From the NCBI GenBank assembly GCA_964035575.1, contig OZ037836.1:806001-870000 (forward strand): DNA of 64,000 nt. Reading direction: 5' to 3'. The notes under the pieces are model-generated. The model made no database searches. It saw only the letters and a program-made list of their open reading frames with translations, and had not been told where the DNA came from. The stretch is from Rhynchopus sp. YZ270_cl-10. Lineage: Eukaryota. The number at the start of each line of letters is the position of its first letter. Position 1 is the stretch's first letter. This document shows, piece after piece, positions 2,104-32,515 of this stretch. The translations under genes were made by a program, and so were the position numbers.

Positions 2104-3782
2104 TAGCTATTTATTCGTCTGAGGAAATATTCACTTTTCCTCACACGAGTGTACCTTTCAGAAACGAGTGGCATTTTACCCCACGAGCGAAGCGAGTGGG
2201 ATAAAGTCAGCCACGAGTTTCTGAAAGGGCACGAGTGGAGTGAAAGTGAATATTTCACCAGAATATAATAGTTTTCTCAACTGAAGGAAAAGTAGCTCTA
2301 AGCAAACCCCGTGGAAGAAGTGTGGGGTGAATATGCAGAAAAAAAAGACGATTTTTTGGTGGGAATATTTTTCACAGAAAATCGAATTTCACTATTAAGA
2401 TTGGCTCTGCTCGACACCCAGTAAGGCTACTATTGGCCCCATGGGACATTTTGGCCCGAATACCAGGCCGTATTTTCAAAAGATTGATAATCCCAGTATA
2501 TGGTATAGCCCTGTGGTACCAAATTTTTGGCCGAAAAAATGGACCAAAAAATGGTCATGTTGGTCACGGTGACAAAATGTGAAGCAGAGATATCAAAATG
2601 ACCCACTCTCCCACCCAATTTTTTTTTCGACCCCCCCCTCTACTTTTCCTCACACCAAAAAAAGCCTCACACATAGGCTTTTTTCTACACAAACCCCAGC
2701 CAAAAATTATTGCTACTTTTCCAAATTGCGTGAGGAAAAGTGGCTATGTGTGAGGAAAAGTGAATTTATCCTCACACTTCTTCCACGGGGTTTGCTCAGA
2801 GCTACTTTTCCTCAGTTGAGAAAAAATTTTTTTTCACAAGTGTTTTTGAGGCCTGCTCACTACACCCTAGGTACCCTTCTGAGACCAAAAAGTCTAAAAA
2901 AGCAAGAATTGGGCTGTTTTGAGCCTCTAAAGTCAATTCCCCAGCCATTTTTTGTACCACCCCAGCCATTTTGTATGGGCCAGCGCCTTAGCAAAAAATC
3001 GAAAATCTCAAAAAAAAAATTTTTTTTTCTCAACTGAGGAAAAGTAGCTCTGAGCAAACCCCGTGGAAGAAGTGTGAGGATAAATTCACTTTTCCTCACA
3101 CATAGCCACTTTTCCTCACGCAATTTGGAAAAGTAGCAATAATTATTGGCTGGGGTTTGTGTAGAAAAAAGCCTATGTGTGAGGCTTTTTTTGGTGTGAG
3201 GAAAAGTAGAGGGGGGGGTCGAAAAAAAAATTGGGTGGGAGAGTGGGTCATTTTGATATATCTGCTTCACATTTTGTCACCGTGACCAACATGACCATTT
3301 TTTGGTCCATTTTTTCGGCCAAAAATTTGGTACCACAGGGCTATACCATATACTGGGATTATCAATCTTTTGAAAATACGGCCTGGTATTCGGGCCAAAA
3401 TGTCCCATGGGGCCAATAGTAGCCTTACTGGGTGTCGAGCAGAGCCAATCTTAATAGTGAAAATTCGATTTTCTGTGAAAAATATTCCCACCAAAAAATC
3501 GTCTTTTTTTTTCTGCATATTCACCCCACACTTCTTCCACGGGGTTTGCTTAGAGCTACTTTTCCTTCAGTTGAGAAAACTATTATATTCTGGTGAAATA
3601 TTCACTTTCCCTCCACTCGTGCCCTTTCAGAAACTCGTGGCTGACTTTATCCCACTCGCTTCGCTCGTGAGATAAAGTCTATTACCCCACTCGCTTCGCT
3701 CGTGGGGTAAAATGCCACTCGTTTCTGAAAGGTACACTCGTGTGAGGAAAAGTGAATATTTCCTCAGACGAATAAATAGCTA
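2104..3782. mobile_element. Foldback-like element: ~720-760 bp inverted arms (2104-2826 / 3023-3782) around a ~195 bp spacer
   Basis: Arms are near-perfect reverse complements (mirror ORFs 2430..2618- and 3231..3419+ are identical). Termini are TAGCTATTTATT / AATAAATAGCTA. Confidence 0.85.
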
Positions 3783-4010
3783 ATTTTTTTTTTTTTTTGA
3801 GATTTTTGAAAAATCGGCCGATTTTGCGACCAAATTTGGCTGGGGAATTTCGGCGACCAAAGGGTCCCCCCTTTGGAAAAAAAACGAAATCGACCAAAAA
3901 AGGTACCCTAACATTTCGGTTTTTTTCGGTTTTCATTTCGTTTTTTTCAGTTTTTCTGGTACAAGGGGAAATTTCCCTTTGCGAAAAAAAAAAAAAAAAA
4001 CGAAATGGAC

Positions 4011-4827
4011 CAGGGTTCTATACAGCATTCCGCCCACGAGGGGCTGGCTCGGTCAGAATCGGTTTGACTCGGTCAGCCCAAAAAAAATTTTTCCCCCCTC
4101 CACAGGGAATTATATAGGTTTTGGGGTTTTTCGCTGAAACTCGGTCGAGCCCGGGTCCCCAACCTAGCTCAAGTTGGGGGCCTCCGGCGGAATGTGAGAA
4201 TTCCTCGGTTATCCAACTGCGGAGTTCGGCACTTCATTGAAGCAATTCGTGCACCAGGCACAAGTGGTACACGAATTGTCTGTAGCCTCAGTGCATTTAT
4301 AACAAAGAAAGGGTGGTCACGGCACCCAAAGCGAAGCCACGGTACGCAACATTTCTAAAAAAAAGTTGACACAAAACGGCACTGTCGCTGGTAATTGTGG
4401 TCAGCTTCCGTAATTTTACTCCCCTGTTTTTCTAAAACGAAAGTTTCTGGCGAAGCCACGGTACGCAACATTTCTAAAAATTGCGCTTAAAATTGCACAT
4501 TTTTACTGCAAAAGTATATCATGGGAAGGGTGGGTTGCAATCTTGCGCCGCAGGCGCACGGTACGCTACTTTTATTATTTCGCCATGCTGCATGCTTCCT
4601 TTTCCTTCGGCGTTTGACCAATTGAGTCGCGTTCTGGCTGTGACGGGGTCACTTTGTTCATGAGGCCATTTCTGGTCACTCTCAGAGGCTCGTGGGAGGT
4701 ACCAAAATTTCCACCCCAAGATTTGGAAAAAAAATCTGAGATTTATAAAAAAAAAAAAAAACGGCTGACCGAGTCAACGTCTGACTCGGTCAGACCGACC
4801 GAGTGACCGGGCCTATATAGAACCCTG
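4011..4827. mobile_element. Non-autonomous TIR element with CAGG termini and a 6-bp TSD (ATGGAC)
   Basis: CAGGGTTCTATA at 4011 and TATAGAACCCTG ending 4827. ATGGAC at 4005-4010 and 4828-4833. Subterminal ctcggtcag repeats. Confidence 0.75.
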
Positions 4828-5601
4828 ATGGACCGAATTACACCGAATTGGACCGAACAGTTAGGGTACCTCCAAAAACAAAAATTGAAACCGCGATCCT
4901 ACTTTTCAATAAAGCAATAAAAACAATAAAGACAAAAGGGAGAAGTTGTGGTGAAGCACCCTGGGTCGGGGCTGGGACAGGGGCCGTTTCGACTTCGCCG
5001 AAGTTCATTGATACGTTTATTCTTTTTGAACTTTTCCTGTGTTGTGACAAGGTAGTTCGTATTTTGTGAAAATTTAAGTCGCTGAAATTTTGTCCATTTT
5101 TCCGTATATCCCCCACCACAAAAAAGTACAGCGGCAAAAACCCATTCCGAGCTTTCGGTCCGGTACGTTGGCGGGGCATCTCCGCTCATATGTGCAAAAT
5201 ACCAAATACCGTATACCTGACCGAATACCGTATAATTCGTATAATTAATTACCTTAATTATACGAATTATTCGAATAATACAACCTAGGGGGGGACCAGG
5301 GGGGACCACTGGTCCCCCTGGGGGGGGGGGGGGGGAAATAATAAGGGGGGACCAGCCTGCCCTTGAGTGTTCCGAGGCTGCCTATTAGGAATTTTCCACA
5401 TTTTTTTAAATTATTCCCACCCTCCCGTCCCCGCGCATCCAAATACAGGCAACTAACAGGGGGAAAAGATGGCACCAAAAAAGTCCTCCGGACCAAGACA
5501 GATTTCCATAATGGAATTTGCAAAGCGACCGGCGGAGTCCCAGTTATCGGCTCAGGCTCCGAAGAGGCAGAAAATAACGGTTGCAAATAACCACGAGTAT
5601 G

Positions 5602-6264: not shown

Positions 6265-7754
6265 TCAATTTTGTTTCCGACTGCTCGGGGGATTCGTCTC
6301 TCTTCGTTTCGGAAGTGCTTCAACCACAAGCTTACTCAGCTCGCCGTTCCTCACTTCGTTGGACACAACACTGCTGCAGCCGGAAAGGTAAATGCTCGTC
6401 AACGAAGTGCAGTGAGCAGCAAATTGCGTAGTAGAAGTAAAACTACTCAGACCAATCGACATCACATTCCTGAGTGGTGATAAATCCAGGGTCGTTAAGC
6501 TGCTGCAGGTCGCAAGGAAGCCCACACCAACCGGCGTCACATTGCTGAGTGCTGATAAATCGATGCTGGTTAAGCTCCTACAGCCGGAAAGGAAGCCCGC
6601 ACCAACCTGCGTAACATTGCTCAACCCAGAGATGTCGATACTTGTCAACGAGACGCAGCAGTATAGGAACTTGTGTCCAATGCGAGTCACAATGGACTCA
6701 GCACTGAGATCAAGTCTCGTCAACAAAGAGCTTGACAAGAAGCAATTCGGAATAACAGTCGCAACCTCCGCCTGCAGAAGCAAACACGCCACCTCAGGAT
6801 CCTCCACACTCTCCAACTTCTCGGCTGTGATGTCGGTCACACCCAACGCATGAAGCTCTGCAATGGCTTCGTACTTCTGCGTTTTCGTGAGGTGGGGGCC
6901 CGTTTTCGATGCATGCACCCCTATCCGAGATAGGTGATACAATACATCGTGGAGGTGATGTTACATAAGTCCATCACCGCCCCTGCTGTGCCCATCCTTC
7001 TGCTTCGTCTGCTTCTTCTTGAAGAAGCCTCCCAGCGTCGTCTGTCGCCCCTTCGAGGTGTCGTGGTGGCGGCGGCAGCAGTGATCCAGCGTACTCTTCT
7101 CTTGCACACAGTTCCCGCACCTCGAGAGTCTATGCTTAGTGCATGCTTCGTGTCGGATCGGTAACCCGTCGTCGTTGGAGTGGTGCGCAAAGCAGCAATG
7201 CATCAGGTCTGCCTGGGCGTTCTTCGAGCAGGCATCACACTTCGTCTTCCGGTGCAGCACACATATCGCAAACTGGAAGATCGGAACCGCTCCTTCAGGT
7301 GCCTTCACGGGTGCGTCCCCTGGACGCACGTGTTCATGGTGCCGGTAGCGAGCATGCGCAGATGTCTCCTGTTCAGCCCGCTGGATGAATGGTAGTGCCC
7401 TCCTGCCCCTAACTTCTGTGGAGGGGTACGCCGTCTCAGCAGAATACTCCCCCATCCATGTACCTCTCGCTCTATCGCCACCACGGAGCTCCGCCTCAGA
7501 CATGCCTTCGGAGCTGCGTTGCAGACGGTACGCCACACCTTCTGCGTTTTCGTGAGGATGATTGTGTCACCAGCACTCAGCTGCGTCATGTCCGCTCCTT
7601 CTCCCATCGCTTCGTCTCCGAAACTCATGCAAAAGCCGTCTTCAGGCAACCCCATTGCAGACGCCACCTTCCGCCGCAAGCCCTCCACTGTGTCATCTTC
7701 ACCCACCTCGACTGTGTGCTGATTCGCTCTGAAATCTTCGAAGTGCACGTCCAT
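6265..7754 (-). CDS. Ubiquitin-like + BspA-type LRR protein, copy A, split by an insert at 6893-7538 that could be spliced as a GT-AG intron (7538->6874)
   Basis: ATG 7754 MDVHFEDF...ILTKTQK joins YEAIAELHALG...LRRs. Collinear with intact copies C and D. Confidence 0.75.
6893..7538 (-). mobile_element. Insert at the Ubl/LRR junction flanked by a 19-bp direct repeat; carries a Cys/His-rich ORF fragment ending in a PIP-box-like motif
   Basis: CTTCTGCGTTTTCGTGAGG at 6874-6892 and 7539-7557. ORF 6961..7536 has two CxxHRxxxCxxC...HCCxxHH motifs and QTTLGGFF. Confidence 0.8.
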
Positions 7755-8645: not shown

Positions 8646-9947
8646 CATAGCGCTCTAATTAGAGTATTAGGGTATAATTAGAGTCTGGGATTTTGGGCCA
8701 AGTCAGTTAGAGTCCAGTTAGAGTATAATTAGAGTCGCTTTTCTTTAATTAGACTTTTATTAGAGTGCAGTTAGAGCATAATTAGACTCTAACTACACTC
8801 TAATTATAGTCTAATTAGAGTATAACAACAGGCTTCTTGTAGGTGCAAACGCCTTAAGGAACCGGTTCCCCTAAGGTTCCTCTGTAGGACCCAGGTGCCA
8901 GGTACCTACATAGCTGAGATAAGACTTGGGGACCCGGGATCCGGTTATCTCAGCCGGACTGGGACACAATATGTGAAGGCGCTGTGGGTCCGCCTGAAAG
9001 CGAGTCGGGGACCCGGTCGCGGGAGGGTGGGGCCTAGTCCTAGCCTAGTACCCGGGACTCGGGACCCGGCTTATTCTCAGCTATGGGTTCCCAGGTACCC
9101 AGTCCCGCGCAGTGGCACATGCCCTCAAGTGTGAGTGACCCACACATGAGGACACCGCAAAAACTCTTCGTGCACCTTCGGTGCAACGCCGCAGACAGGC
9201 CAAACAGCGTTGGACTCAGAGGAATGCCGTGCAGGTAACAAACATGAAAACCAACTCCCAGCAACAAGGGGCGCCTTTTGGCGGGCGTTATTATTGAGGG
9301 TGTTTGGGGTGCAAAGTTTTCCACAATTTTGATGCGCGGGTACAGAAGTGTTGTCTTGTTCTTTCATCTCTAGGAATGTAAATGTCAATCGAGTTTAACT
9401 CCACTAAGGTGTCGAAGGGGTAATCCAAGTACCAACGACGGGAAATCTATGAGTATACGTTCATGTCATCCGCAGAAATAACTACTTATGAACCCAGGAG
9501 AGATCCAAGCCTCGCGCTAAACCACCACCCGCGATTGACTTAGATGTAAAAACAAAGAGCATTCATAACAAAACAACACCCTGCCCATACACACTAAATT
9601 GCCGTGCTTCTACCCTGGGCCAAAATTCCTGTGCTAAAAATGCAACAAGACCACCCACAAGGAGTGTGAATTGTGCAGTGGTTTTCTGGGGGAACAAACA
9701 ATATTTTCTTGTATCTAGTCCTCTGCAAGCAGAGAACAGACTTTCTAGATTACAAAGTAGAATTTCTTGCACTAGCTATGCTTCCTGGGTTAATGGCTAT
9801 AGCATTGGTTGATGTGCCCCTCTTATTGACCCTCTTATAAGACTCTAATTATGCTCTAATTAGAGTCCAGTTAGAGTTTTAAAGACTCTAATTACACTCT
9901 AACTGCCGACTCTAATGATCTAATTAGAGTCTAATTAGAGCGCTATG
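8646..9947. mobile_element. TIR element with TA/TATA TSD and ctctaattagag subterminal arrays (Tc1/mariner-like MITE, probably with nested inserts)
   Basis: CATAGCGCTCTAATTAGAG at 8646 and CTAATTAGAGCGCTATG ending 9947, flanked by TATA on both sides. Confidence 0.75.
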
Positions 9948-9954
9948 TATAATA

Positions 9955-12007
9955 GGGTCCGTCCGGAAACCCCTCTGGTAAGATTCATCCTTTTGGGGGT
10001 TTTTGAGGTTTTTCGGCTCAAAACACCCAAATAACCCAATTTTTTGATACCCACCATACACCTACCACCCCAGAGGGCATATTTTGGGTATTTACTTTTG
10101 TTTATTTCCCCTCCCCCCTTTTTACTTTTATTTTTTTACGTATTTTTGGACATTTCATAAACATGGCAATGGCAGCAATTAAAGACCTCAATGATAAACT
10201 CAAGCTCTTACCCTCACAAAAGGCATATCATGAACGTGCGCCCAATTCTGGATCACGCCTCACCGTTTTGAGCGCTGCGAAGGAGTTCTTGCGTGTGTTT
10301 GGCGGAGATGCGGAGGGGAGTGTGGCGCTTGTGGCAGCAGCGATCGGCAAAGGGGTACTTCTGCAGCACCTCATCCCTACGCATGTAGCCCGCGTCAACG
10401 CAAGCACTGACGAGGCACGGCGTGCCGTGGTGCATGCCCTGAAGGAGGACGGCTTTAGTAGAAGCATGATACAACGCTCAGGCTTGATTTGTGGTGAGAG
10501 CATCTTCCAAAAATGTGAGTCGAAAGGGGTAGGGGGGCGCCCCACTGTGCTGACGCCCGAAAAGAAGGCGGAAATCGCGGAGGTGGTGGAGAAGCACTCA
10601 GAGTCACTCTCCCGCAAGAGCGCCTCGGGGAGCAAACGGCGGGGCCACGCCGTCTACCTCAGGACTCTCGAGATGCGCAAAACATCATTGTTTAAGCGTA
10701 TCAGCGGCGTTGGGCGCAGTGTGTTTTTCAACCACATGCGCAGGAACCACCCTGAGGCACAGTTCCGGCGCAGGAAGACCGACATGTGCGAGTACTGCGT
10801 CAGCGAGGGGGGAGTGAGAAGGAGCCTAAAGAACCTATTCCAGGCTCGCAACCTGAACATTGCCTTCAGTGCTCCAGCTGAGGACTTCGAGTCTCACCTC
10901 GCATCCGCCCATCGCCTGCCGAAAACGTGGCGCGAAGATGTTCGGGAAAAGATCCAGGAGTTGAAGGACATCGCAATTCACCAGGAGCGGGCTCGGCGTC
11001 AGAGGGCTGTCTACAACAACGTGGTGAAGGAGCCCCCGGCAGACAGCATAGTCATTGACATTGACTTTAAACAAAAAGGTCATTTGCCAATGAAGCCTGT
11101 TGAGTGTTCAGGTGATTTTTACGCTCGCTCAGCATATTCTCATTTGGGGGTAGGTTTGTATTGGGTAGAGAATGGCAAACGTGTGCATAAACACATAGAT
11201 TACGTCCTTCCCAGTATTACCCAAGATGCCTATACTGTTGTGAAGTGCCTCGAACACCTTTTTTCCCAAGATTTCATGCCACAATTTACTAAGATTCAGT
11301 TCTGGGCTGATGTTGGTCGCCATTTCCAGAACATGGAATTGGGCCATTATATTTTGATTAAACTTGCAAAAAAAAAGAAAGCAGATGTCAGTGTTCACTT
11401 TTTTGCCGAGAAACACGGTAAGAATGGGCGCGACGTACACTTCGGTGTCGTTTCGAACCATCTCTCCTATGTTTCTTGTTGTCGGGAGATACTTACCGTA
11501 GAGGACATTGTCGATGCCCTGCAAGAGCTTCCCCACACAGAGGCCTTTGTTATTTTATTCCCTCGTACTCAGACATATCAGTGCAACGTTCTTTCCATCA
11601 ATCTCTTTTGTTCTGTGTACTGCTACTCGAGCAACGGTCGTGTCATTTCAGCTAGTGTGTACTCTGACACGGAGGGAAGCGGTATTAAATATAGAGTCAC
11701 CACATCCAAGGTGACCCGCAAAGTAAAAGTCCCTGCCATTGCCACAGTAGATTTGACAGAGGCCAATGAAACCTTGTCAAGGCGGCATGACAGGATTAAG
11801 AGAAAGGGAGAAGAAATCGAGAAAAACAACAATAAAAGGCAGAAAATCGGATAAAAAGTGAAAATATAGCCTCAGACCCCCCCCCCCCCCAAACCTATTT
11901 TTATATCAGAATATCACTTAGATGCACTTTTTGTGGGGGACATCATGAAAAAAACCCAAAAATACCCAAAAGGATGAATCTTACCAGAGGGGTTTCCGGA
12001 CGAGTCC
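9955..12007 (+). mobile_element. Autonomous DNA transposon, Sola-like, with ~40-bp TIRs
   Basis: GGGTCCGTCCGGAAACCCCTCTGGTAAGATTCATCCTTTTGGG at the left and its reverse complement ending 12007. AT-rich flanks (ATA). Encloses a single 563-aa ORF. Confidence 0.85.
10163..11854 (+). CDS. DDD-type transposase (Sola-like)
   Basis: Motifs GGRPT (HTH linker), KTDMCEYC, IDIDFKQK, WADVGRHFQN, FAEKHGKNGRDVHFG; basic NLS-like C-terminus. Superfamily assigned from motif recall only. Confidence 0.75.
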   Translation: MAMAAIKDLNDKLKLLPSQKAYHERAPNSGSRLTVLSAAKEFLRVFGGDAEGSVALVAAAIGKGVLLQHLIPTHVARVNASTDEARRAVVHALKEDGFSRSMIQRSGLICGESIFQKCESKGVGGRPTVLTPEKKAEIAEVVEKHSESLSRKSASGSKRRGHAVYLRTLEMRKTSLFKRISGVGRSVFFNHMRRNHPEAQFRRRKTDMCEYCVSEGGVRRSLKNLFQARNLNIAFSAPAEDFESHLASAHRLPKTWREDVREKIQELKDIAIHQERARRQRAVYNNVVKEPPADSIVIDIDFKQKGHLPMKPVECSGDFYARSAYSHLGVGLYWVENGKRVHKHIDYVLPSITQDAYTVVKCLEHLFSQDFMPQFTKIQFWADVGRHFQNMELGHYILIKLAKKKKADVSVHFFAEKHGKNGRDVHFGVVSNHLSYVSCCREILTVEDIVDALQELPHTEAFVILFPRTQTYQCNVLSINLFCSVYCYSSNGRVISASVYSDTEGSGIKYRVTTSKVTRKVKVPAIATVDLTEANETLSRRHDRIKRKGEEIEKNNNKRQKIG

Positions 12008-12819: not shown

Positions 12820-14721
12820 TCACATGCACACACATTTGCACTTAGTATCCTCCACGAGTCTACCGCTATCGCCATGCACATAGTCTGACACAACACTGCT
12901 CGATCCGGTGACGTTGATGCTGCTTGTGGGTATGTTGCATCCTTTTAGGAAGCCTGTCCCAATGTGCTGAACAGTAGTCAACCCAGATAAATCAAGTGTT
13001 TGCAATGTGTTGCAGTTGCGCAGGAAGTCGCTCCCTATTAGCCTCACATTGCTCCACCCAGAAATATCCAGTGTGGTCAATGAGGTGCAGTTGAAGAGAA
13101 AGTAGTAATTAACCTGCGTCACATTGTTCCACCCAGACAAGTCAAGGTTTTGCAATGCGGTGCAGTCGGAGAGAAAATAGTCCCCTATTTGCGTCACATT
13201 GCTCCACCCAGAAATATCCAGTGTGGTCAATGAAGTGCAGTTGGCGAGGAAGTACCCACCGACCCGCATCACATTGTTCCACCCAGACAAGTCAAGGGTT
13301 CGCAATGCGGTGCAGCAGGAGAGAAAGTAGTCCCCCATTTGCGCCACATTGTCCCACCCAGAGAAGTCGAGAGTTCGCAATGCAATGCAGTTGTACAGAA
13401 AGCAGTACCCTATTTGCGTCACATTGTTCCACCCAGACAAGTCAAGGCTTTGCAATGCGAGGCATTTGGAGAGGAAACTGTTCCCAACCTGCCTCACATT
13501 GCTCCACCCAGAAATATCCAGTGTGGTCAATGAAGTGCAGTTGGAGAGACAAAACTCAAGGAGAGTCACATTGCTCCACCCAGACAAATCAGCAGTGTGC
13601 AATGAGGTGCAGTCCCAGAGTAGGTGCTTATTAACCCGCGTCACATTGCTCCACCCAGACAGGTCAAGGTTTTGCAATGCGGTGCAGGAGGAGAGAAAAG
13701 ACATTCCCATCTGCCTCACATTGCTCCACCCAGAAATATCCAGTGTGGTCAATGAGGTGCAGCTGGCGAGGAAGTAGTCCCCTATTTCCGCCACATTCCA
13801 CCCAGAAATATCCAGTGTGGCCAATGAAGTGCAGCTGGCGAGGAAGTAGTCCCCTATGTGCGCCACATTGTTCCACCCAGGCAAGTCAAGGGTTCGCAAT
13901 GCGGTGCAGGCGCAGAGGAAGTACTTCCCTATTTGCGTCACATTGTTCCACCCAGAAATATCCAGTGTGGTCAATGAACTGCAGTTGGCGAGGAAGCCGT
14001 TATCAATCTGCCTCACATTGTTCCACCCAGAAATATCCAGTGTGGTTAATGATTTGCAGTTGGAGAGAAAGTACTCATCAACCCGCGTCATATTCGTCCA
14101 CCCAGACAAGTCAAGGGTTTGCAATGCTGTGCATTTGGAGAGAAAAGAACTTCCCACCTGCGTCACATTGTTCCACCCAGAAATATCCAGTGTGGTCAAT
14201 GAGGTGCAGTTGGCGAGGAAGTACTGCTGAAGGAGTGTCACATTGCTCCACCCAGATAAATCAGCAGTGTGCAATGAGGTGCAGTTTTGGGCGAAACGGC
14301 TTCCTACGTGAGTCACACCTGGCACACCACTGAGATCAAGCTCTTCGAACTTGCCACGTGACAAGAAGTAACGGGGGATCTCAGTAACAACCTCCGCCTG
14401 CAGAAACAAATGAATCAGCTTGGGATCTGCAAGAATTCTGAACCTCTCTGACGTCAGCCTTGTCTCACCCAAGTCACGAAGAGCTGCAATGGCGTCATCC
14501 TTCTGCGACTTCGTCTTCGTCAGCACAACTGTGTCCCCAGCACTCAGCTGCGTGATGTAGTCTCCTTCGGCCAGCAGCTTCCCTCCGAAGCTCATGTCAA
14601 AGCCGTCTTCGCACAACTCTGCTGCAGACGCCACCTTCCGCCGTATGTCCGCAGTTGTATCATCCACACCCACCTCGACTGTGTACTTCTCTCCGTCAAA
14701 GCTCTTCACACATATTTCCAT
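12820..14721 (-). CDS. Ubiquitin-like + long BspA-type LRR protein (~18 repeats of ~26 aa) with a C-terminal CaaX motif, copy B
   Basis: N-terminal Ubl (MEICVKSFDGEKYTVEV...RRKVA...LSAGDTVVL). Repeats LxxCTSLTTLDISGWxNVxxIGxxF. Ends KCKCVCM. Confidence 0.9.
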   Translation of the reverse strand: MEICVKSFDGEKYTVEVGVDDTTADIRRKVASAAELCEDGFDMSFGGKLLAEGDYITQLSAGDTVVLTKTKSQKDDAIAALRDLGETRLTSERFRILADPKLIHLFLQAEVVTEIPRYFLSRGKFEELDLSGVPGVTHVGSRFAQNCTSLHTADLSGWSNVTLLQQYFLANCTSLTTLDISGWNNVTQVGSSFLSKCTALQTLDLSGWTNMTRVDEYFLSNCKSLTTLDISGWNNVRQIDNGFLANCSSLTTLDISGWNNVTQIGKYFLCACTALRTLDLPGWNNVAHIGDYFLASCTSLATLDISGWNVAEIGDYFLASCTSLTTLDISGWSNVRQMGMSFLSSCTALQNLDLSGWSNVTRVNKHLLWDCTSLHTADLSGWSNVTLLEFCLSNCTSLTTLDISGWSNVRQVGNSFLSKCLALQSLDLSGWNNVTQIGYCFLYNCIALRTLDFSGWDNVAQMGDYFLSCCTALRTLDLSGWNNVMRVGGYFLANCTSLTTLDISGWSNVTQIGDYFLSDCTALQNLDLSGWNNVTQVNYYFLFNCTSLTTLDISGWSNVRLIGSDFLRNCNTLQTLDLSGLTTVQHIGTGFLKGCNIPTSSINVTGSSSVVSDYVHGDSGRLVEDTKCKCVCM

Positions 14722-16207: not shown

Positions 16208-17035
16208 TTAGGTTGCCGACCGCTCGGGAGATTCGTCTCTGCTTCGTTTCGGACGTGCTTCAACCACAAGCTTACTCAGCTTGCCGTTCCTCACTTCGTT
16301 GGACACAACACTGCTGCAGCCGGAAAGGTAAATGCTCGTCAACGAAGTACAGCGCGCAGCAAATTGCGTAGTGATAGTAGAAGTAAAAGGATGCAAACCA
16401 AACGACATCACATTCCTGAGTGGTGATAAATCCAGCGTTGTTAAGCTCGTGCAGGCGCCAAGAAAGCTCGCACCAACTTGCGTCACATTGCTGAATGCTG
16501 ATAAATCGATGGTGGTTAAGCTCTTGCAGCCCCAAAGAAAGCCGCTACCAATGTGCGTCACATTGCTCAACCCAGAGAGGTTGATACTTCTCAACGAGGT
16601 GCAGTCTGCCAGGAAGTTGGGTCCAATGTGAGTCACAATGGACTCAGCACTGAGATCAAGTCTCGTCAACGAAGAGCTTGACAAGAAGCAATTCGGAATG
16701 ACAGTCGCAACCTCCGCCTGCAGAAGCAAACACGCCACCCCAGGATCCCTCACCCTCTGCAACTTCTCGGCTGTGATGTTGGTCACACCCAACGCATGAA
16801 GCTCTGCAATGGCTTCTTGTTTCTGCGTTTTCGTGAGGATGATTGTGTCACCAGCACTCAGCCGCATCATGTCCGCTCCTTCTCCCATCGCTTCGTCTCC
16901 GAAACTCATGCAAAAGCCGTCTTCAGGCAACCCCATTGCAGACGCCACCTTCCGCCGCAAGCCCTCCACTGTGTCATCTTCACCCACCTCGACTGTGTGC
17001 TGATTCGCTCTGAAATCTTCGAAGTGCACGTCCAT
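16208..17035 (-). CDS. Ubiquitin-like + short LRR protein, copy C
   Basis: Intact ORF from the MDVHFEDF ATG at 17035. About 4 LRRs; basic tail RPKRSRDESP. Confidence 0.85.
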   Translation of the reverse strand: MDVHFEDFRANQHTVEVGEDDTVEGLRRKVASAMGLPEDGFCMSFGDEAMGEGADMMRLSAGDTIILTKTQKQEAIAELHALGVTNITAEKLQRVRDPGVACLLLQAEVATVIPNCFLSSSSLTRLDLSAESIVTHIGPNFLADCTSLRSINLSGLSNVTHIGSGFLWGCKSLTTIDLSAFSNVTQVGASFLGACTSLTTLDLSPLRNVMSFGLHPFTSTITTQFAARCTSLTSIYLSGCSSVVSNEVRNGKLSKLVVEARPKRSRDESPERSAT

Positions 17036-17870: not shown

Positions 17871-18692
17871 TTAGGTTTCCGACCGCTCGGGGGATTCGTC
17901 TCTGCTTCGTTTCGGACGTGCTTCAACCACAAGCTTACTCAGCTCGCCGTTCCTCACTTCGTTGGACACAACACTGCTGCAGCCGGAAAGGTAAATGCTC
18001 GTCAACGAAGTGCAGCCCTCAGCAAATTGCGTAGTATGAGTGAAAGGATTCAAATCAATCGACGTCACATTGCTGAGTGGTGATAAATCCAGGGTGGTTA
18101 AGCTGCTGCAGGTCGCAAGGAAGCCCACACCAACCTGCGTCACATTGCTGAGTGCTGATAAATCGATGCTGGTTAAGCTCCTGCAGCCGGAAAGGAATCC
18201 CGCACCAACCTGCGTAACATTGCTCAACCCAGAGAGGTCGATACTTGCCAACGAGGTGCAGTAGTATAGGAAGCTGTGTCCAATGCGAGTCACAATGGAC
18301 TCAGCACTGAGATCAAGTCTCGTCAACGAAGTGTGTGACAAGAACCAATTCGGAATGACAGTCGCAACCTCCGCCTGCAGAAGCAAACACGCCACCCCAG
18401 GATCCTTCACACTCTCCAACTTCTCGGCTGTGATGTCTGTCACACCCAACGCATGAAGCTCTGCAATGGCTTCTTGTTTCTGCGTTTTCGTGAGGATGAT
18501 TGTGTCACCAGCACTCAGCTGCGTCATGTCCGCTCCTTCTCCCATCGCTTCGTCTCCGAAACTCATGCAAAAGCCGTCTTCAGGCAACCCCATTGCAGAC
18601 GCCACCTTCCGCCGCAAGCCCTCCACTGTGTCATCTTCACCCACCTCGACTGTGTGCTGATTCGTGTCGAAACCCTTGATGTTCAGGTCCAT
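17871..18692 (-). CDS. Ubiquitin-like + short LRR protein, copy D
   Basis: Intact ORF from the MDLNIKGF ATG at 18692. Tandem duplicate of copy C, including flanks. Confidence 0.85.
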   Translation of the reverse strand: MDLNIKGFDTNQHTVEVGEDDTVEGLRRKVASAMGLPEDGFCMSFGDEAMGEGADMTQLSAGDTIILTKTQKQEAIAELHALGVTDITAEKLESVKDPGVACLLLQAEVATVIPNWFLSHTSLTRLDLSAESIVTRIGHSFLYYCTSLASIDLSGLSNVTQVGAGFLSGCRSLTSIDLSALSNVTQVGVGFLATCSSLTTLDLSPLSNVTSIDLNPFTHTTQFAEGCTSLTSIYLSGCSSVVSNEVRNGELSKLVVEARPKRSRDESPERSET

Positions 18693-18983
18693 GTCTTTGT
18701 TGTGGTTTTGTGTTCTGATCTCTGTGTGTGGTGGTGGGGTGTGGAGGACAACAAGCCTGCAGTCCTTTTCAATGAAGGGTTGAAGGGGAGGCAGGCATGA
18801 GAATAAGGCCCGGACCCCGGACCCCGGACCCGGCCCCCCGGAACCCGACACCCCCCTACCCTACTCTTGCTCCCTTCCCACCCTCTAAGAACTTGTCCAT
18901 TTTGGAAAAGTGACCCCACCATTGGCCGCACGGATTCCGAAAATGCAAATGCCGGTGTTTTTTGGTATTTTCACTTTGCACTC

Positions 18984-20004
18984 TGCCCGGCACTTTGCCC
19001 GGCACCCTGCCCGGCACCCTGCCCGGCACCCTGCCCGGCACCCTGCCCGGCACCCTGCCCGGCACCCTGCCCGGCACCCTGCCCGGCACCCTGCCCGGCA
19101 CCCTGCCCGGCACCCTGCCCGGCACCCTGCCCGGCACCCTGCCCGGCACCTTGCCCGGCACCTTGCCCGGCACCTTGCCCGGCACCTTGCCCGACACCTT
19201 GCCCGGCACCTTGCCCGACACCTTGCCCGGCACCTTGCCCGGCACCTTGCCCGGCACCTTGCCCGGCACCTTGCCCGGCACCTTGCCCGGCACCTTGCCC
19301 GGCACCTTGCCCGACACCTTGCCCGGCACCTTGCCCGACACCTTGCCCGGCACCTTGCCCGGCACCTTGCCCGGCACCTTGCCCGGCACCTTGCCCGGCA
19401 CCTTGCCCGACACCTTGCCCGGCACCTTGCCCGACACCTTGCCCGGCACCTTGCCCGGCACCTTGCCCGGCACCTTGCCCGGCACCTTGCCCGGCACCTT
19501 GCCCGGCACCTTGCCCGGCACCTTGCCCGGCACCTTGCCCGGAACCTTGCCCGGCACCTTGCCCGGCACCTTGCCCGACACCTTGCCCGGCACCTTGCCC
19601 GGCACCTTGCCCGGCACCTTGCCCGGCACCTTGCCCGGCACCTTGCCCGGCACCTTGCCCGGCACCTTGCCCGGCACCTTGCCCGGCACCTTGCCCGGCA
19701 CCTTGCCCGGCACCTTGCCCGACACCTTGCCCGGCACCTTGCCCGACACCTTGCCCGGCACCTTGCCCGGCACCTTGCCCGGCACCTTGCCCGGCACCTT
19801 GCCCGGCACCTTGCCCGGCACCTTGCCCGGCACCTTGCCCGGCACCTTGCCCGGCACCTTGCCCGGAACCTTGCCCGGCACCTTGCCCGGCACCTTGCCC
19901 GACACCTTGCCCGGCACCTTGCCCGGCACCTTGCCCGGCACCTTGCCCGGCACCTTGCCCGGAACCTTGCCCGGAACCTTGCCCGGCACCTTGCCCGGCA
20001 CCCT
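18984..20004. repeat. 12-bp minisatellite (TGCCCGGCACCY)n, ~85 units
   Basis: Directly visible, with variant units GACACC and GAACC. Confidence 0.97.
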
Positions 20005-20634
20005 GTTAAACCCCGACACCCCCACCCATTCCCAGCACCAACACATCCACAACAGAAATTTTACTATGTTATCACCCCAGGCAGCTGTACATGACAGCCT
20101 GTCCGGCACCCCCGCTGTCAAGAGGGGGTCCCGAGAAAGCCCCATTTGTGAATCTTTACATAGATTAGAGTCAGCTTAGAGATCCCCTCACCCCACCCCA
20201 CACCCAACGTGTCGTTCAGCACTCCAAAAAACCGAGACCCCCTCACCCTCACCCCCACCCCCTCCCTAGTAAACTTGTTTAAGCAGCTCTGCTGCGTCTT
20301 GGGGGTCTCTCGATTATATATTTTAGGCTTCGCGTCCTGCATGTTTATTGTCCACTTGCATCTGCAAGGTTGGAAGAGGGTAACAGGGGAAACTCATTAA
20401 AAATCATTCACTCACTCATCAGGATTTTTTGTGTTTCCCCGGTCTCACCCTCCGTACGTTAACTTCGCATAGTGTTTGCCAAAAAATTAAAAGATTGGGG
20501 CGGTAGGGTTTTTTATTCGGATTTGCGTTTTTTGCTTGTTGCTCTTATATAGGGAAAGTCAAAACACACCACCTTCATCAGGAATTTTTCCACAAATTTG
20601 TTTCCCCGGTGTGTTTTCCTTCCCTCGTACGAAT

Positions 20635-21663
20635 ATGGACTTGACAGCTGAGTTTGAGGGGCGCAAGGCCTGTCACTTCAAGGTGAGTGAAGTGATGCGC
20701 GTATGTTGTGCGGGAGCGCCAGATGTGGTGAAGACGGCGCTGAAGGATTCCTTCTTGCCGGGGGACTACATCCTGGCAACCCTGGCAGGATTGGGGGGTG
20801 TGGTGACGGAGAGCGACCTGCGGCAATTGGTGATTGAGGTCACCAGGTCGAATGAGGCGGCGTGGGAGAAGACGAAGCCCCGCCGTCTCGCCCTCTTTCT
20901 GGCCACGGTGAGGAACGGCCTTGGGGACGTGACCTTTGCGCAGTTGCTGAGTGGCGAGGACGCGGCATCTTTCCCTTGCTCTGAGGACGTATCTTCTCCG
21001 AAGGCCTCTGTGGAGACAGAGGAGCAGGCAGTGGCGGCCGAGGCAGTGAAGAAACGTTTTGTGTTTGCGCCGGTGGTACGCGAGACTGATGGGCAGGACC
21101 GCATCGCCGCTTTCGAGGCCGCACAGGACTTCCCAGACGACCAACCGGACGACCGCAGCGACATCCGCAGTGACGACATGGGGCCCGACGCTGAAACCGT
21201 GGCACTCAATCCGACGCGTTGGCAAGAACTCGACAGGTTTGGCCAAACCGAACTGTTGGAGCAACTCGCAAAATACGTGCCTGATAAGGAAGGGGACACA
21301 CGGGACGCGGCACGCGGAACTCTGAACCTGATCCAGAAGATTCTGAAGGGGAAGAACATGGGGGACCTCCTCGTGATCCTCCTGGACGACCTGCTATGTG
21401 TGCACTACCGTTTCACGATGGGGCTGGAGGCGGCCAGGGCGTTCCGTTCCCGTACATCGATGGGCACTTCGACCACCCCCCAACGCCGTGCAGCGATGCT
21501 GGCAGCGACGGCAGCGAATGCGCGCTTTGCAGGCACGAAGAGACGCCACAGCACCACCTCCTCCAACAACTACAACGACAGGGGATCGAAGCGCACGAGG
21601 TTCGACCCATCGGCGACCTTCGGACGGAAAGGAGGCAAAGGGGGGAAGCCTTTTCGCCAGTAG
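20635..21663 (+). CDS. Gag-like protein
   Basis: First ORF of the element (ATG 20635); basic/Gly-rich C-terminus RKGGKGGKPFRQ. Confidence 0.7.
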   Translation: MDLTAEFEGRKACHFKVSEVMRVCCAGAPDVVKTALKDSFLPGDYILATLAGLGGVVTESDLRQLVIEVTRSNEAAWEKTKPRRLALFLATVRNGLGDVTFAQLLSGEDAASFPCSEDVSSPKASVETEEQAVAAEAVKKRFVFAPVVRETDGQDRIAAFEAAQDFPDDQPDDRSDIRSDDMGPDAETVALNPTRWQELDRFGQTELLEQLAKYVPDKEGDTRDAARGTLNLIQKILKGKNMGDLLVILLDDLLCVHYRFTMGLEAARAFRSRTSMGTSTTPQRRAAMLAATAANARFAGTKRRHSTTSSNNYNDRGSKRTRFDPSATFGRKGGKGGKPFRQ

Positions 21664-24624: not shown

Positions 24625-26974
24625 TATGCATTTGTGATTTCTTTTATTCTTTCTCTTTTTCTCTTGTCCTTTCTTCAAAAGAGTGTTGTGGTCGTACACA
24701 TGTCAATCGGACTGGAAACGATGTACCAAAGCGGTATATGGTGTGTTTTCCTTCCCTCGTACGTCACAATAAACGAAACCCCTCCTCACATTGTTTTTGT
24801 TGCGCTTTCAGGACCTCATCGACGGATCACTATTTGTACACCAGATCTCCACCCCCACCCCCACCCCTTGTGAGAATAGCCACCCAGGACCCCGGACCCG
24901 CACCCCCCTAACCTTATTCTCATGCCTGAGGGGAGGGGTTCTTTGAGTGGTCAGCAAAGTGTGAAGAAATAAAGTGGCTTTGAATGGGTGAAGCAAGACA
25001 GGCAAGTTGCCGGCTGCGTGGAGATCACACACGACACGCCTATTCACGTCACGATGAGGCTGGCCGACCGGTTAGGTTGCGATGCCACAGTGATCAGGGT
25101 ACCAGCCTTCTCTTGGGGTGATGGTGTGTACGTGCAGCCCCCTTCCACCATCTAGGATAGGATCTGTGTATCTCAGCGGGTTGAGGCTCGAAACAGAAAA
25201 CGCTGTCAGAAAAGACGGTTGCGAGGGGGATGATGTCGTCACACCATTTTGCTTGTTTGCAGGAAATGAAAGTAATAAGAGTGACAGAAGTGGCAGCAGT
25301 AATGTTGCGAAGGTGATTGGAAACAAAAGGAAACCCTGGTAAAAGGGAACCTTTTTTTAAATGTGGCTGCGTAGATTATTTGCTGCACTCAGAGAAAGAC
25401 AACTGAGTTCCCTCCAATTTAGATGAACAGCACAGAATAGAATAACATGACGGAAAGAATACGAACCTGAAAAACCAAAATAAATACTACAGGTGTCAAA
25501 TAGCTATCTTCACCCACACAGGAAAAACGGGAAACGAAACAGGGGGATAGTTTGTCACTTGTACGCTTCCACCGAAAAAGAAAACTTGAAAGATGAAAGT
25601 GCCTTCCGTGCACACACAGCTGAGGGTGCGATCTTTGATTATGTTGACAACTACTTCACTGCTCCATCCTACTTTCTCAAGCGCCACGACGGATGCGGAC
25701 CCACACGATTGAGGAGCTCCTGCTGTCTGATGACGCGTGGTACCTGCATGTTCCGCAAATACTCAACGTCATGCGAACCCTACTTGGAACTCTTTCTGGA
25801 CAAACACGAAGCCGCTTTGCCACAAGCAGAACCCATGGCATGCCCAGAATCACTGCGCTAGGACGTAGGAAGCAAACCTCGTCCCCTGGCAGACCCTCCA
25901 CCACGGGGAGGTGCTGCCCTGCCACCAACACACCACGTCGTCATTGTGCGTGTCTCTGTCGCTTCTGGCTTTGCTCGGGGGACTCGTCTCTGCTTCGTTT
26001 CGGACGTGCTTCAACCACAAGCTTACTCAGCTTCCCGTTCCTCACTTCGTTGGACACAACACTGCTGCAGCCGGAAAGGTAAATGCTCGTCAACGAAGTG
26101 CAGCCCTCAGCAAAATGCGTAGTATTAGTAAAACTACTCAAACCAATCGACGTCACATTGCTGAGTGGTGATAAATCCAGGGTGGTTAAGCCGCTGCAAC
26201 TCATAAGGAAGCCCGAACCAACTTGCGTCACATTGCTGAGTGGAGATAAATCGATGCTGGTTAAGCTCGTGCAGCCCAAAAGAAAGACGCTACCAATGTG
26301 CGTCACATTGCTCAACCCAGAGAGGTCGATACTTCTCAACGAGGTGCAGAATGACAGGAAGTTGTGTCCAATGTGAGTCACAATGGACTCAGCACTGAGA
26401 TCAAGTCTCGTCAACAAAGAGCTTGACAAGAACCAATTCGGAATGAAAGTCGCAACCTCCGCCTGCAGAAGCAAACACGCCACCTCAGGATCCTCCACAC
26501 TCTCCAACTTCTCGGCTGTGATGTCTGTCACACCCAACGCATGAAGCTCTGCAATGGCTTCTTGTTTCTGCGTTTTTGTGAGGTAGGGGTCCGTTTTAGG
26601 TCTCTGGCAGGCCGGGCCTTCTTTCTGTGGCCTTCCCAACCAAAAGACCCCCAAAAAACACAGGTACCTGCTGCGTTTAGTGGCACTTTACCCCAGTCCC
26701 TGGAACAGATCGGCAAGCCGACCAGCCCAGGTATGCATGCCAACACTACTGGGGGTGCACTGTTCGATAGCATAAAAGAAAAGTCAAAAAGTCAAAAAGA
26801 CAAGAAGGTCAAACAAAATAGGTACTTCGAACAGGGCTGACAGGAGGGGATTCTCACCCGAGGTTCGGTGCCTGTCAGGCTGCGATTAGTGGTTCTGGGT
26901 GATTCCCTTCTTCCGTCCAGGCCCGAACCGGAAACATTAACCTCCGTTTTTCGAAACAATAAAAGTAAAAATGA

Positions 26975-27044
26975 AAAATATATCCGTTTCGCTTGATCAG
27001 ATCTCGACCGTTTGTTGCATTGCACGCTTCCACCTGCCGACACT

Positions 27045-27099
<55 letters not shown>

Positions 27100-28145
27100 A
27101 AAAAATTGATTGTTTCCAGCACACGCGGACTGTGTCAGTGTGTGATGGTATATGAGTATTGCCTGAAGTACAGAAAATGGGAGTGTCGGTGGCGGAGCAC
27201 AAAAGAGGTAAAATGAGAAACATATCGGGTGGGGTCTCTGATCTAATCTGTGCGACGAATATATTTCCCCTAACACGCCATGTTTGGCCAGGGCCTCTCC
27301 AGCGCGTCAGTTGCAAAATATATCCGTTTCGCTTGATCAGATCTCGACCGTTTGTTGCATTGCACGCTTCCACTCAGGACCCTAAGGACCCTCGGATCGA
27401 AGGGACGCCGCGCGAACGATGAATGGGATTACGCTCCGCTGCTAAACCGGTAGTGTGATCGGGTAGTCTGCCACCACGCCTCTCGTGTACTTGTCTGCTT
27501 TTTGCTCCAACGTCGGTACCCATTCACATGCGACTTGGATGCGGGCGCCGGCCGCTAGGGTGAAAAGTTCAGCGATCACGAAATTTGAGCGGTAGTCTGA
27601 AGAGTGGCCCCTCTGGAGGCTGTGTACAGCCGGGAGGTTGTCGACCATCAGCCTGAGTCGCGTAGTATGTACCGATCTTGCCGCAAGTGCTACAGCCTGC
27701 TGCCCGGCATCAGTGCTCCCATCCTTCGCAGACTCCGACGGTAATCCTGCACCATTTGGGACTCCGCCAGGCGTGCGTCCCCTGTCCGCCGTAACGCCGC
27801 CGCCACGTCCATCGTATATTGCAGCGCCGAACTACTCCGTCTAAAGACCTTTTCTTTTCCACCCAATATATGAGCGCCACTTCGTGTGAGATTGTGCATG
27901 TGTGTTTCTTTTTTTTTTTTTTTTTGAAAAAATTGATTGTTTCCAGCACACGCGGACTGTGTCAGTGTGTGATGGTATATGAGTATTGCCTGAAGTACAG
28001 AAAATGGGAGTGTCGGTGGCGGAGCACAAAAGAGGTAAAATGAGAAACATATCGGGTGGGGTCTCTGATCTAATCTGTGCGACGAATATATTTCCCCTAA
28101 CACGCCATGTTTGGCCAGGGCCTCTCCAGCGCGTCAGTTGCAAAA
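26975..28145 (-). mobile_element. Internally deleted split-direct-repeat (A1-B1-A2-B2; PAT/Ngaro-type) YR retroelement retaining an RNase H C-terminus
   Basis: A = 27926-28145 and 27099-27318; B = 27315-27373 and 26975-27033. ORF 27442..27648 VDNLPAV..LQRG...EWVPTLEQKADKYTR is DIRS-type RNase H. Confidence 0.85.
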
Positions 28146-28361
28146 GAAAAAGCAACAGCAAGAGCAGTGTTGCTGTAAAAGAAACAGCAGCACCGTCAGC
28201 TAACATGCCACACAATATGGCAGACGGCCACACAAAATTCCCCTGATTTGTACAGAGAAAGTTGTAACTTCTTCCTTACAAGTAAAGAAATGCCGGCAGG
28301 GAAGGAGTTACAACAAACAGTGAACAAACTCAAGTACCAGCCTTTCCGCGTAGCACAGACC

Positions 28362-28745
28362 CTACATTTGGTAGTTGGTCTGCCCTACTGCCTCATCTGC
28401 ACCGTAGCTGGACGCCACGGCGACAACTCCTTCATCTATCAACGCACCAAAGCACGTGAAAATAGAACAAAAACAAACACAATGGAAAAACAGCAGAGCA
28501 TGTACCTGCAGATCCACAGTTGTTTCACGTACAGTGCATACACCCTGAAAGCTTAACCTCTTCCTTCTAGCACAGACGTTGGTCTGCCCTACTGCCCCTT
28601 CTGCACCGTAGCTGGACGCCACGACGACAACTCCTTCATCTATCAACGTACCAAAGCACGTGAAAATAGAACAAAAATAAACACATTGGAAAAACAGCAG
28701 AGCATGTACCTGCAGATCCACAGTTGTTTCACATACAGTGTACGC
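28362..28745. repeat. Diverged tandem duplication (~200-bp unit x2)
   Basis: gttggtctgccctactgcc...cagttgtttcac repeated at ~28374 and ~28578. Confidence 0.8.
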
Positions 28746-29479
28746 ACCAACAAAGCAACAAAACGTTCCCATGCGGTCAAACGACAACACAGGAACAGCA
28801 ACAATATTCCGTCACCAGTAGAGACACCGGCAACGCTTCCTTCTTGTACCTGGGATCCCCTCATCGGCATCAACACACTCCCAGTCACCGCACAGGTAAC
28901 AGATCCTTGAAACCCCTCGAAGGGGTTTGCGTAGCCTGCATAAGCTGGTGATCTGCCCGAAATTGACTGTGATGTTGTGTTAATAACGAGGGTCCCCACA
29001 TCGGCTTGTTCCTCCTCCGGTCCCGAGCGAATCCATCATTGGAGAGGCGGCCGCCCACGCTGACTCAGTACCATGCGAACACGGCGTCCAGGGGCCCCAC
29101 TTGGCGGTTGGTCAGACGTTAATTGCCCCCTTCTGCGTTTTCGTGAGGATGATTGTGTCACCAGCACTCAGCTGCGTCATGTCCGCTCCTTCTCCCATCG
29201 GTTCGTCTCCGAAACTCATGCAAAAGCCGTCTTCAGGCAACCCCACTGCAGACGCCACCTTCCGCCGCAAGTCCTCCACTGTGTCATCTTCACCCACCTC
29301 GACTGTGTGCTGATTCGTGTCGAAACCCTTGATGTTCAGGTCCATGTCTTTGTTGTGGTTTGTGTTCTGATCTCTGTGTGTGGTGGTGGGGTGTGGAGGA
29401 CAACAAGCCTGCAGTCCTTTTCAATGAAGGGTTGAAGGGGAGGGGTTCTTTGAGTGGTCAGCAAAGTGTGAAGAAATAT

Positions 29480-31678: not shown

Positions 31679-32515
31679 GGGTCCGTCCGGAAACCCTCCT
31701 GGTAAGATTCATCCTTTTGGGGGTTTTTTGAGGTTTTTCTGCTCAAAACACCCAAACAACCCAATTTTTTGATACCCACCATACACCTACCACCCCAGAG
31801 GGCATATTTTGGGCATTTATTTTTGTTTATTTCCCCTCCCCCCCTTTTTACTTATATTTTTTTACGTATTTTTGGGCATTTCATAAACGTGGCAATGACA
31901 GCAGTGAAGTTCACTTTTTTGTCGAGAAACACGGTAAGAATGGGTGCGACGCACACTTGGTGTCGTTTCGAACCATCTCTCTGATGATTCTTGTTGTCAG
32001 GAGATCCTTACCGTAGGGGTCATTGTCGGTGCCCTGCGCGAGCTTCCCCACACAGAGGCCTTTGTTATCTCATTCCCTCGTACTCATACGTATCAGTGCA
32101 CCCTTCTTTCCATCAATCTCTTTTCTTCTGTGTACTGCTACCCGAGCAACGGTCGTGTCATTTCAGCGTGTACTCTGACACGGAGGGAACCTTTATTTAC
32201 TATGGAGTCTCCACATCCAAGGTGACCCGCAAAGCAAAAGTCCCTGGCATTGACCCAGTAGATTTGACAGAGGTCAATGAAACCTTGTCAAGGCGGCATG
32301 GCAGGATTAAGAGAAAGAGAGAAGAGATCCAGAAGAACGACAATAAAAGGCTGAAAATCTGATTAAAAAAGCGAAAATATAGCCTCAGACCCCCCCAAAA
32401 ACCTATTTTCATATCAGAATATCACCTAGATGCACTTTTTGTGGGGGACATCATCAAAAAAACCCAAAAATACCCAAAAGGATGAATCTTACCAGAGGGG
32501 TTTCCGGACGAGTCC
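31679..32515 (+). mobile_element. Internal-deletion derivative of the Sola-like transposon at 9955-12007; 4-bp TSD ATAT
   Basis: Same TIRs; joins ~10172 to ~11390 of the full copy; frameshifted transposase C-terminus. ATAT at 31675-78 and 32516-19. Confidence 0.92.

Follow-up and report, generated by a model that had tools for sequence, protein, structure and literature searches.

A sequence-targeting LINE that aims at a protein-coding multigene family, leaves a fixed 18-bp duplication and lacks poly(A) is in our assessment a real feature of the DNA analyzed here (a 64,000-nucleotide stretch from Rhynchopus sp. YZ270_cl-10, hereafter the window). We consider it probable that this is an AP-endonuclease-type LINE that uses target-primed reverse transcription and strongly prefers a single 18-bp site, located in the linker between the ubiquitin-like (Ubl) domain and the LRRs of a large protein family. 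Three observations underlie this reading: identity of an insert in the window with part of a full-length LINE frame, variable 5′ ends combined with a fixed 3′ end, and the same site being used in paralogs and by two subfamilies.

The interrupted gene and its target site

The 5′ half of the interrupted host gene (7539..7754, minus strand) encodes the ubiquitin-like domain and the 3′ half (6265..6873, minus strand) a helical linker and BspA-type LRRs. An exact 19-bp direct repeat lies at 6874-6892 and 7539-7557 and does not extend on either side; it is far above chance (the longest repeat across 30 shuffled versions of this region was 10). This bears out an earlier note on this DNA, made from the letters alone, which had reported that the sequence coding for LTKTQK stands on both sides of a 646-bp insert. 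That note gave the duplication of this insert as 19 bp; 18 bp is the better reading. The G at 7539 (minus strand) is present in both the target and the element, where it is the first base of the codon for Gly1473 of the protein P0017 (see below), so what looks like 19 bp is best taken as an 18-bp duplication next to one nucleotide of microhomology. The other junctions also give 18 bp. The upstream copy (7540..7557, minus strand) codes for LTKTQK in the Ubl/LRR linker, and the downstream copy (6875..6892, minus strand) brings CAG at 6877-6879, followed by AAG at 6874-6876, as candidate splice acceptors. When 665 bp are deleted, an intact 274-aa Ubl-LRR frame with TQK-YEA results, in agreement with the earlier remarks that the insert starts with GT on the gene strand and that splicing it out would restore the reading frame.

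The 18-mer occurs at four sites in the window, two of which are occupied (by insert 1, at the gene just described, and by insert 2). The other two (16821..16838 and 18478..18495, both minus strand) are empty sites in intact paralogs, each with the 18-mer present once. Intact members of the target family number at least 118; the Ubl domain is present in 118 of the 120 Ubl-LRR relatives listed (the best 120 of 760 matches). Short frame-keeping insertions are concentrated at the LINE target in the linker. One or two extra residues, in several forms, are found there in 13 of the proteins that match the linker pattern (92 of the 118; P0144-P0263), and few insertions are seen elsewhere in the first 125 residues. 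In the window, 14510-14530 is such a linker site of small in-frame insertions. The extra residues could be repair scars of abortive nicking, the result of slippage, or simply tolerated by the linker.

Insert 1 is the tail of a LINE

Insert 1 (6893..7538, minus strand; 646 bp) is coding. On the gene strand an open frame runs from 7539 to 6964 and ends 68 nt short of the downstream target copy; with its stop (6961..7539, minus strand) it makes up the last 192 codons of a LINE frame, and 192 of 192 residues are identical to residues 1473-1664 of P0017. This part of the protein consists of Cys/His-rich repeats, with what we take to be a PIP-box-like motif close to the end of the frame; a Pfam search with the insert 1 peptide gave no match. 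Contigs from public runs (X1 and X2) continue beyond 7539 into sequence that is not that of the Ubl gene, and hand translation of the 30 letters past this point yields P0017 residues 1463-1472. The identity with P0017 and the continuation of these contigs as P0017 before Gly1473 thus indicate that insert 1 is a young 5′-truncated LINE copy. It comprises the 3′-terminal part of the element and carries no poly(A).

The 3′ UTR (6893..6960, minus strand; 68 nt) is predicted to form a long hairpin at ~6907-6949, with z-scores from 200 shuffles of -3.0 (71 nt) and -3.65 (108 nt). It ends in a 14-nt terminal motif (6893..6906, minus strand) that shares 12 of its 14 positions with the 3′ end of insert 2 and that occurs, within two mismatches, at two places in the window. 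The absence of a poly(A) tail, also claimed earlier, is confirmed in the sequence at the junction, where the hairpin and the 14-nt motif abut the target. No terminal inverted repeats are apparent by eye, and there is no second copy of the 646-bp insert in the window. A DDE transposon was considered as the identity of insert 1 and rejected.

An assembly artifact was ruled out, as contigs with the element were recovered in all four runs examined, from three studies (one of them possibly the source sample). None of the 24 runs listed is an RNA run, a result without bearing on expression. Depth in the X1 contigs is ~3,400-5,000 inside the insert versus 60-215 for flank contigs, which hints at many element copies, depth not being a copy number. 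Loose ends behind 6892 in X2 and X6 correspond to empty-site contigs, in which paralogs, empty alleles and spliced RNA look alike.

The parent LINE family

The search for a full-length autonomous copy that the earlier note suggested led to a full-length protein, P0017, of 1,664 aa. It was found by searching for longer proteins that match the insert 1 frame, which returned four matches among 979 candidates. The clusters of these matches have 34, 7, 1 and 1 members, with P0017 in the cluster of 34 (subfamily A) and the remaining 7+1+1 making up a sister subfamily (B; e.g., P0024). The two subfamilies are 77% identical (P0017 vs P0024). The first 56 and last 12 residues of P0017 and P0024 are identical despite the overall value of ~77%, and this pattern may reflect RNA signals conserved at the two ends, or exchange there.

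P0017 is laid out as a 2A-like motif, an AP endonuclease, a reverse transcriptase (RT), a CCHC knuckle and a Cys/His-rich tail. The 2A-like motif, at residue 80, reads NPGP (the canonical form) in subfamily B and HPGP in subfamily A, its activity being only predicted. The N-terminal AP endonuclease is recognized by PF03372 (E 6e-10), with catalytic motifs in both subfamilies, and the RT by PF00078 (E 2e-19), with catalytic motifs present and the best solved-structure matches to L1 ORF2 and R2. RNase H gave no Pfam match in P0017 at E<=5 and no motif. A predicted model of the C-terminal 426 residues (pLDDT 75) has no fold match in the PDB at E<=0.001. The LINE copies begin at residues 611, 843, 1094 and 1473, plus one in the 3′ UTR, and the 3′ end is the same in the window and in P0250. 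The element therefore has the RT, the N-terminal AP endonuclease, and the combination of 5′ truncation, fixed 3′ end and target-site duplication that define AP-endonuclease-type LINEs; the 3′ poly(A) or simple-repeat tail, which is usual but not universal among them, is absent.

These features bear on a quite different origin, raised in the earlier note, by which the duplication would be a recombinase att core or the insert a CRE/SLACS/CZAR-type element. The long duplication and the missing poly(A) would suit such an origin, and tyrosine-recombinase (YR) retroelements are present in the window. However, insert 1 is the tail of an AP endonuclease/RT frame and its family is truncated to variable extents at the 5′ end. 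No tyrosine recombinase domain was found in P0017 or P0024 and no internal repeats within insert 1, and P0017, with its N-terminal AP endonuclease, gave no match to a restriction-like endonuclease or any other nuclease. VIPER/TATE elements insert without producing a duplication, and the targets of CRE elements are SL genes (PMC12278014). Both proposals fall with this evidence, and we regard them as very improbable indeed.

The metagenome relatives are distant. An exact 28-nt pattern from the 3′ UTR had 0 matches in metagenome contigs, and the 16 related metagenome loci (23-55%) include none with Ubl-LRR, the target or the terminal motif. A separate database protein, P0129, belongs to a distant LINE in which the frame opens with a ubiquitin domain ending in LRLRGG, directly before the endonuclease and instead of the 2A peptide; this arrangement may be an alternative route to a free N-terminus.

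Target preference across the family

Fusions of the LINE frame to foreign N-termini offer a view of insertion sites beyond the window, limited to in-frame sense insertions. Such an N-terminus was found in 4 of the 24 family proteins listed (which include 15 of the 34 in subfamily A), and in three of those four it is Ubl: P0011 in subfamily A, and P0003 and P0005 in subfamily B. The joint in all three falls on residue six of L-T-K-x-x-(K/N), where an 18-bp duplication would put it, and the junction codon can be written as the last two bases of the target and the third base of an element codon, the cut being as in the window. An X2 contig joint of 6949 to 7540 (one contig, aligned at 88% likeness, with a side of 27 letters) implies a copy of 57 nt at this same site, its start lying at the foot of the 3′ hairpin. 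In addition, the 2 of 120 Ubl-LRR relatives listed that lack Ubl start with translated element 3′ ends, P0250 with that of insert 1 and P0263 with that of insert 2. Overall, the insertion nucleotide agrees in 6/6 5′ junctions and 4/4 3′ junctions seen, drawn from two subfamilies plus insert 2. The Ubl fusions at the same codon and the autonomous parent P0017 support the earlier suggestion of a target-specific non-LTR system at the Ubl/LRR junction.

Five other LINE clusters served as controls. Among their 68 members listed there are 10 foreign N-termini (some of which may be frameshifts instead of host fusions), and 0/10 are Ubl, compared with 3/4 in the family (Fisher p 0.011); a Ubl search in 76 proteins also gave 0 matches. 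Co-location of family members with Ubl-LRR contigs is weak (6/11 vs 9/42 contigs, p 0.056, with all four same-assembly controls; p 0.049 if the P0055 family is left out of the controls), contigs being distinguished solely by their length in this comparison.

It is important to weigh these results against a more ordinary explanation, in which the LINE has only a loose consensus preference, most copies lie elsewhere, and the Ubl-LRR linker is a hot spot, the family being large, clustered and tolerant of loss, much like ingi/L1Tc in RHS genes. Consistent with this, one of the four fusions (P0004) joins a non-Ubl frame outside the Ubl-LRR family, although its last six residues are target-like, with a score reached at only 7 of 3,424 control positions. 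Nine of the 24 family proteins are on 5 contigs that do not appear in the best-120 Ubl-LRR list (5 of them, including the full-length P0017, on a single contig), and the target codons vary (LTKTLK, LTKMR, LTKTK). The P0055 control family, a young LINE with 33 members and no Ubl fusions, is likewise concentrated on Ubl-LRR-rich contigs (11/15 rows listed). A hot spot does not readily account for both nicks falling at the same nucleotides in every 5′ and 3′ junction seen, in two subfamilies and insert 2, or for the lack of Ubl fusions in the other LINE clusters. We consider it unlikely, albeit with a real chance of being correct, and it differs from the targeted reading only in degree.

A strong preference of the family for the Ubl/LRR site is therefore supported, and the family is likely a rare sequence-targeting LINE. 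Copies at one site could have spread partly by duplication or gene conversion of interrupted genes; their differing 5′ ends speak against this being the only cause.

Insert 2 and neighboring repeats

Insert 2 (26584..29130, minus strand) splits the fourth gene with the 18-mer, a paralog, at the same site. Its downstream target copy (26566..26583, minus strand) has one mismatch relative to the upstream copy (29131-29148), and the duplication is again 18 bp. The outer part is unlike LINE proteins, with no similarity to those of the dataset, and the 5′ end is GG. What insert 2 has in common with insert 1 is the 14-nt motif, which sits directly before the target; folding of its 3′ end (z -1.7) is less clear than that of insert 1. 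Insert 2 is likely a non-autonomous, non-coding passenger that borrows the same 3′ signal. On opposite strands, insert 1 and the 5′ end of insert 2 resemble each other over 30 nt (E 0.034); the match had no protein support and was set aside as chance.

Within insert 2, at 26972-28145, 241-bp and 62-bp repeats are ordered A...B-A-B around an RNase H fragment that is related to the YR element of the window (E 1e-6). The arrangement resembles that of a VIPER/TATE-like element that has split direct repeats and has suffered a deletion. The YR element itself (20491-24624, plus strand) is an apparently intact tyrosine-recombinase retrotransposon with gag-like, YR and overlapping RT/RNase H frames. 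Elsewhere in the window, two long frames without a clear Pfam family (10007-11854 and 61604-63628, both plus strand) resemble transposase-type genes by eye, the first having a partial second copy near 31959-32396, and a 12-bp tandem array of ~1.1 kb occupies 18880-20060. An AT-rich palindromic repeat cluster at 8660-8830 has sub-threshold miRNA matches in Rfam (three, at 8731-8832). Rfam gave no match at the gathering level in 6000-30000, and no sub-threshold match in either insert.

Could the insert be an intron?

At its 5′ junction insert 1 carries a candidate splice donor, GTGTG (7534..7538, minus strand), in the context AAG/GTGTG, which matches the host consensus at 4/5 positions. Of the 646 insert positions, 4 have GTRTG and 11 have GT with two of three further matches. 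The window's host introns start with GTATG, and two putative ones read G/GTATGT...CACAG and join in frame in two paralogs; signals of this type are the consensus given for Diplonemidae (PMC12621601). Both candidate acceptors would be in frame, the CAG at 6877, which is the canonical one, giving TQKKYEA, with one extra lysine, and the AAG at 6874 the exact TQKYEA. The CAG comes from the duplicated target and so is gained by every insertion.

From these observations one could argue that the element is a target-specific LINE introner, its site selected for a duplication that supplies CAG, with donor-bearing copies spliced out and the host gene kept working. The similarity of the insert 1 donor to host signals, the two in-frame acceptors and the P0011 junction, which may read AAG/GT, would fit. 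Nevertheless, a good donor is present in only one of the five LINE 5′ junctions (insert 1) and a possible weak GT, in poor context, in one (P0011); GT is missing from the other three (those of the short copy in X2, of P0003 and of P0005), and insert 2 lacks it as well. The GT of insert 1 is an internal truncation point within the coding frame, hence not a conserved end, and together with the three junctions that lack it this argues that there is no introner family. Introners are expected at many unrelated positions, and all junctions seen but one are at one homologous site. The introner-like character that the earlier note proposed is thus not a property of the family, and we hold an introner origin to be improbable. 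Selection for splicing across the family is similarly doubtful. By its signals, splicing of the insert 1 copy at some level is a fair question, and we lean modestly against it.

The putative last introns of two paralogous large membrane-protein genes in the window differ in length, at 1,145 bp (41859-43003, minus strand) and 207 bp (33893-34099, minus strand). The longer one holds a fragment of another LINE family (42385-42735, 81% to P0305).

Proposed mechanism and significance

Target-primed reverse transcription follows from the combination of AP endonuclease and RT domains. The endonuclease would make a first nick in the bottom strand, at the 5′ edge of the 18-mer, and the LINE protein would grip the 3′ UTR hairpin and prime without a poly(A) tail, perhaps on read-through RNA that includes target sequence; for SART1, target-like RNA has been suggested to anneal (PMC7265360). 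A second nick, in the top strand and 18 nt on, would produce the fixed duplication, and early stops of reverse transcription would give the truncated copies. The GT at the 5′ junction of insert 1 would then be an accident of truncation, perhaps still usable as a donor.

Most known sequence-specific AP-endonuclease LINEs belong to two clades of animal elements, with RNA genes, telomeres or repeats as their targets (PMC4640811). For a protein-coding target, we found a single precedent, the RHS hot spot of trypanosomes. If true, a young family without a tail, whose nicks in a protein-coding family are fixed at a distance of 18 bp, would be a separate case of evolved targeting. A more far-reaching version, that it is a third origin of specificity among AP-endonuclease LINEs, with a protein-coding exon as target, an in-frame acceptor, donor copies (perhaps full-length) that are spliced out and a passenger element, strikes us as a long shot. 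The same assembly contains sister families without such fusions, so that endonuclease swaps could map the determinants of targeting. The system also provides a natural test of whether LINE insertions turn into introns where the acceptor comes from the target, as well as a compact new scaffold with which to study site-directed gene insertion.

Comparison with known systems

Introners may resemble this system in that a transposon insertion has ends that look compatible with splicing, one site coming from the duplication. They differ in occupying many positions as opposed to one target, and only one or two of the five junctions here have the donor. Non-LTR elements are the source of about 5% of classified introners (PMC12130899).

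CRE, SLACS and CZAR are likewise site-specific euglenozoan non-LTR elements with sizeable duplications. They have a restriction-like endonuclease, SL RNA gene targets and poly(A) ends (PMC12278014); this LINE has none of these traits, its target being a protein-coding exon with no Rfam match at the gathering level.

The R1 and Tx1 clades (R1, SART, TRAS, Keno) share with it the AP-type endonuclease, sequence specificity and a multicopy target, and, as in those clades, insertion is at one nucleotide of that target in the junctions seen. The likeness is one of principle. The targets listed for R1/Tx1 comprise rRNA genes, SL exons, tRNA and snRNA genes, transposons, microsatellites and telomeres, none of them a protein-coding exon (PMC4640811), and most R1-clade elements end in poly(A) (PMC7265360).

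The nearest named relatives are the Diplonema papillatum LINEs annotated "R2/LINE-1 Pol" (e.g., KAJ9444445.1), with the same 2A-APE-RT-CCHC layout, to which this LINE is 51% identical in the RT region and 40% over 1,460 residues. In an RT tree limited to database neighbors, the family groups with D. papillatum elements and two other proteins (support 0.92). As to lineage, these RT relatives and the intron signals point to a host that is likely a diplonemid, and a marine one. No Ubl or other foreign N-terminus is present among the 15 members listed of the D. papillatum cluster. The genome paper for that species reports many LINE-like frames and transposons inside introns, and the passages and seven supplements searched, which may not include the repeat chapter, describe no LINE targeting (PMC10161547). 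More generally, the literature searched, with most subscription journals and Repbase outside its reach, yielded no description of target-specific diplonemid LINEs.

The closest precedent is that of ingi/RIME and L1Tc/NARTc in RHS genes, also in euglenozoan hosts. Unlike ingi, this LINE has no RNase H and no poly(A), and its target is the Ubl-LRR family; the duplication is 18 bp, compared with ~12 bp for ingi. Its single frame with a 2A-like peptide is as in the ingi clade, and RNase H after the RT is not found; relatives that do have RNase H place it after the CCHC knuckle, not between the RT and C2H2 fingers. Ingi-type elements have a single frame that runs from a 2A-like peptide at the N-terminus through the AP endonuclease and RT to a C-terminal Cys/His region (PMC5814959), and ingi is described, in the title of one paper, as only relatively site-specific. 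The present LINE works like ingi, which together with a short partner inserts at one site of the large protein-coding RHS family and halves it (PMC7563717).
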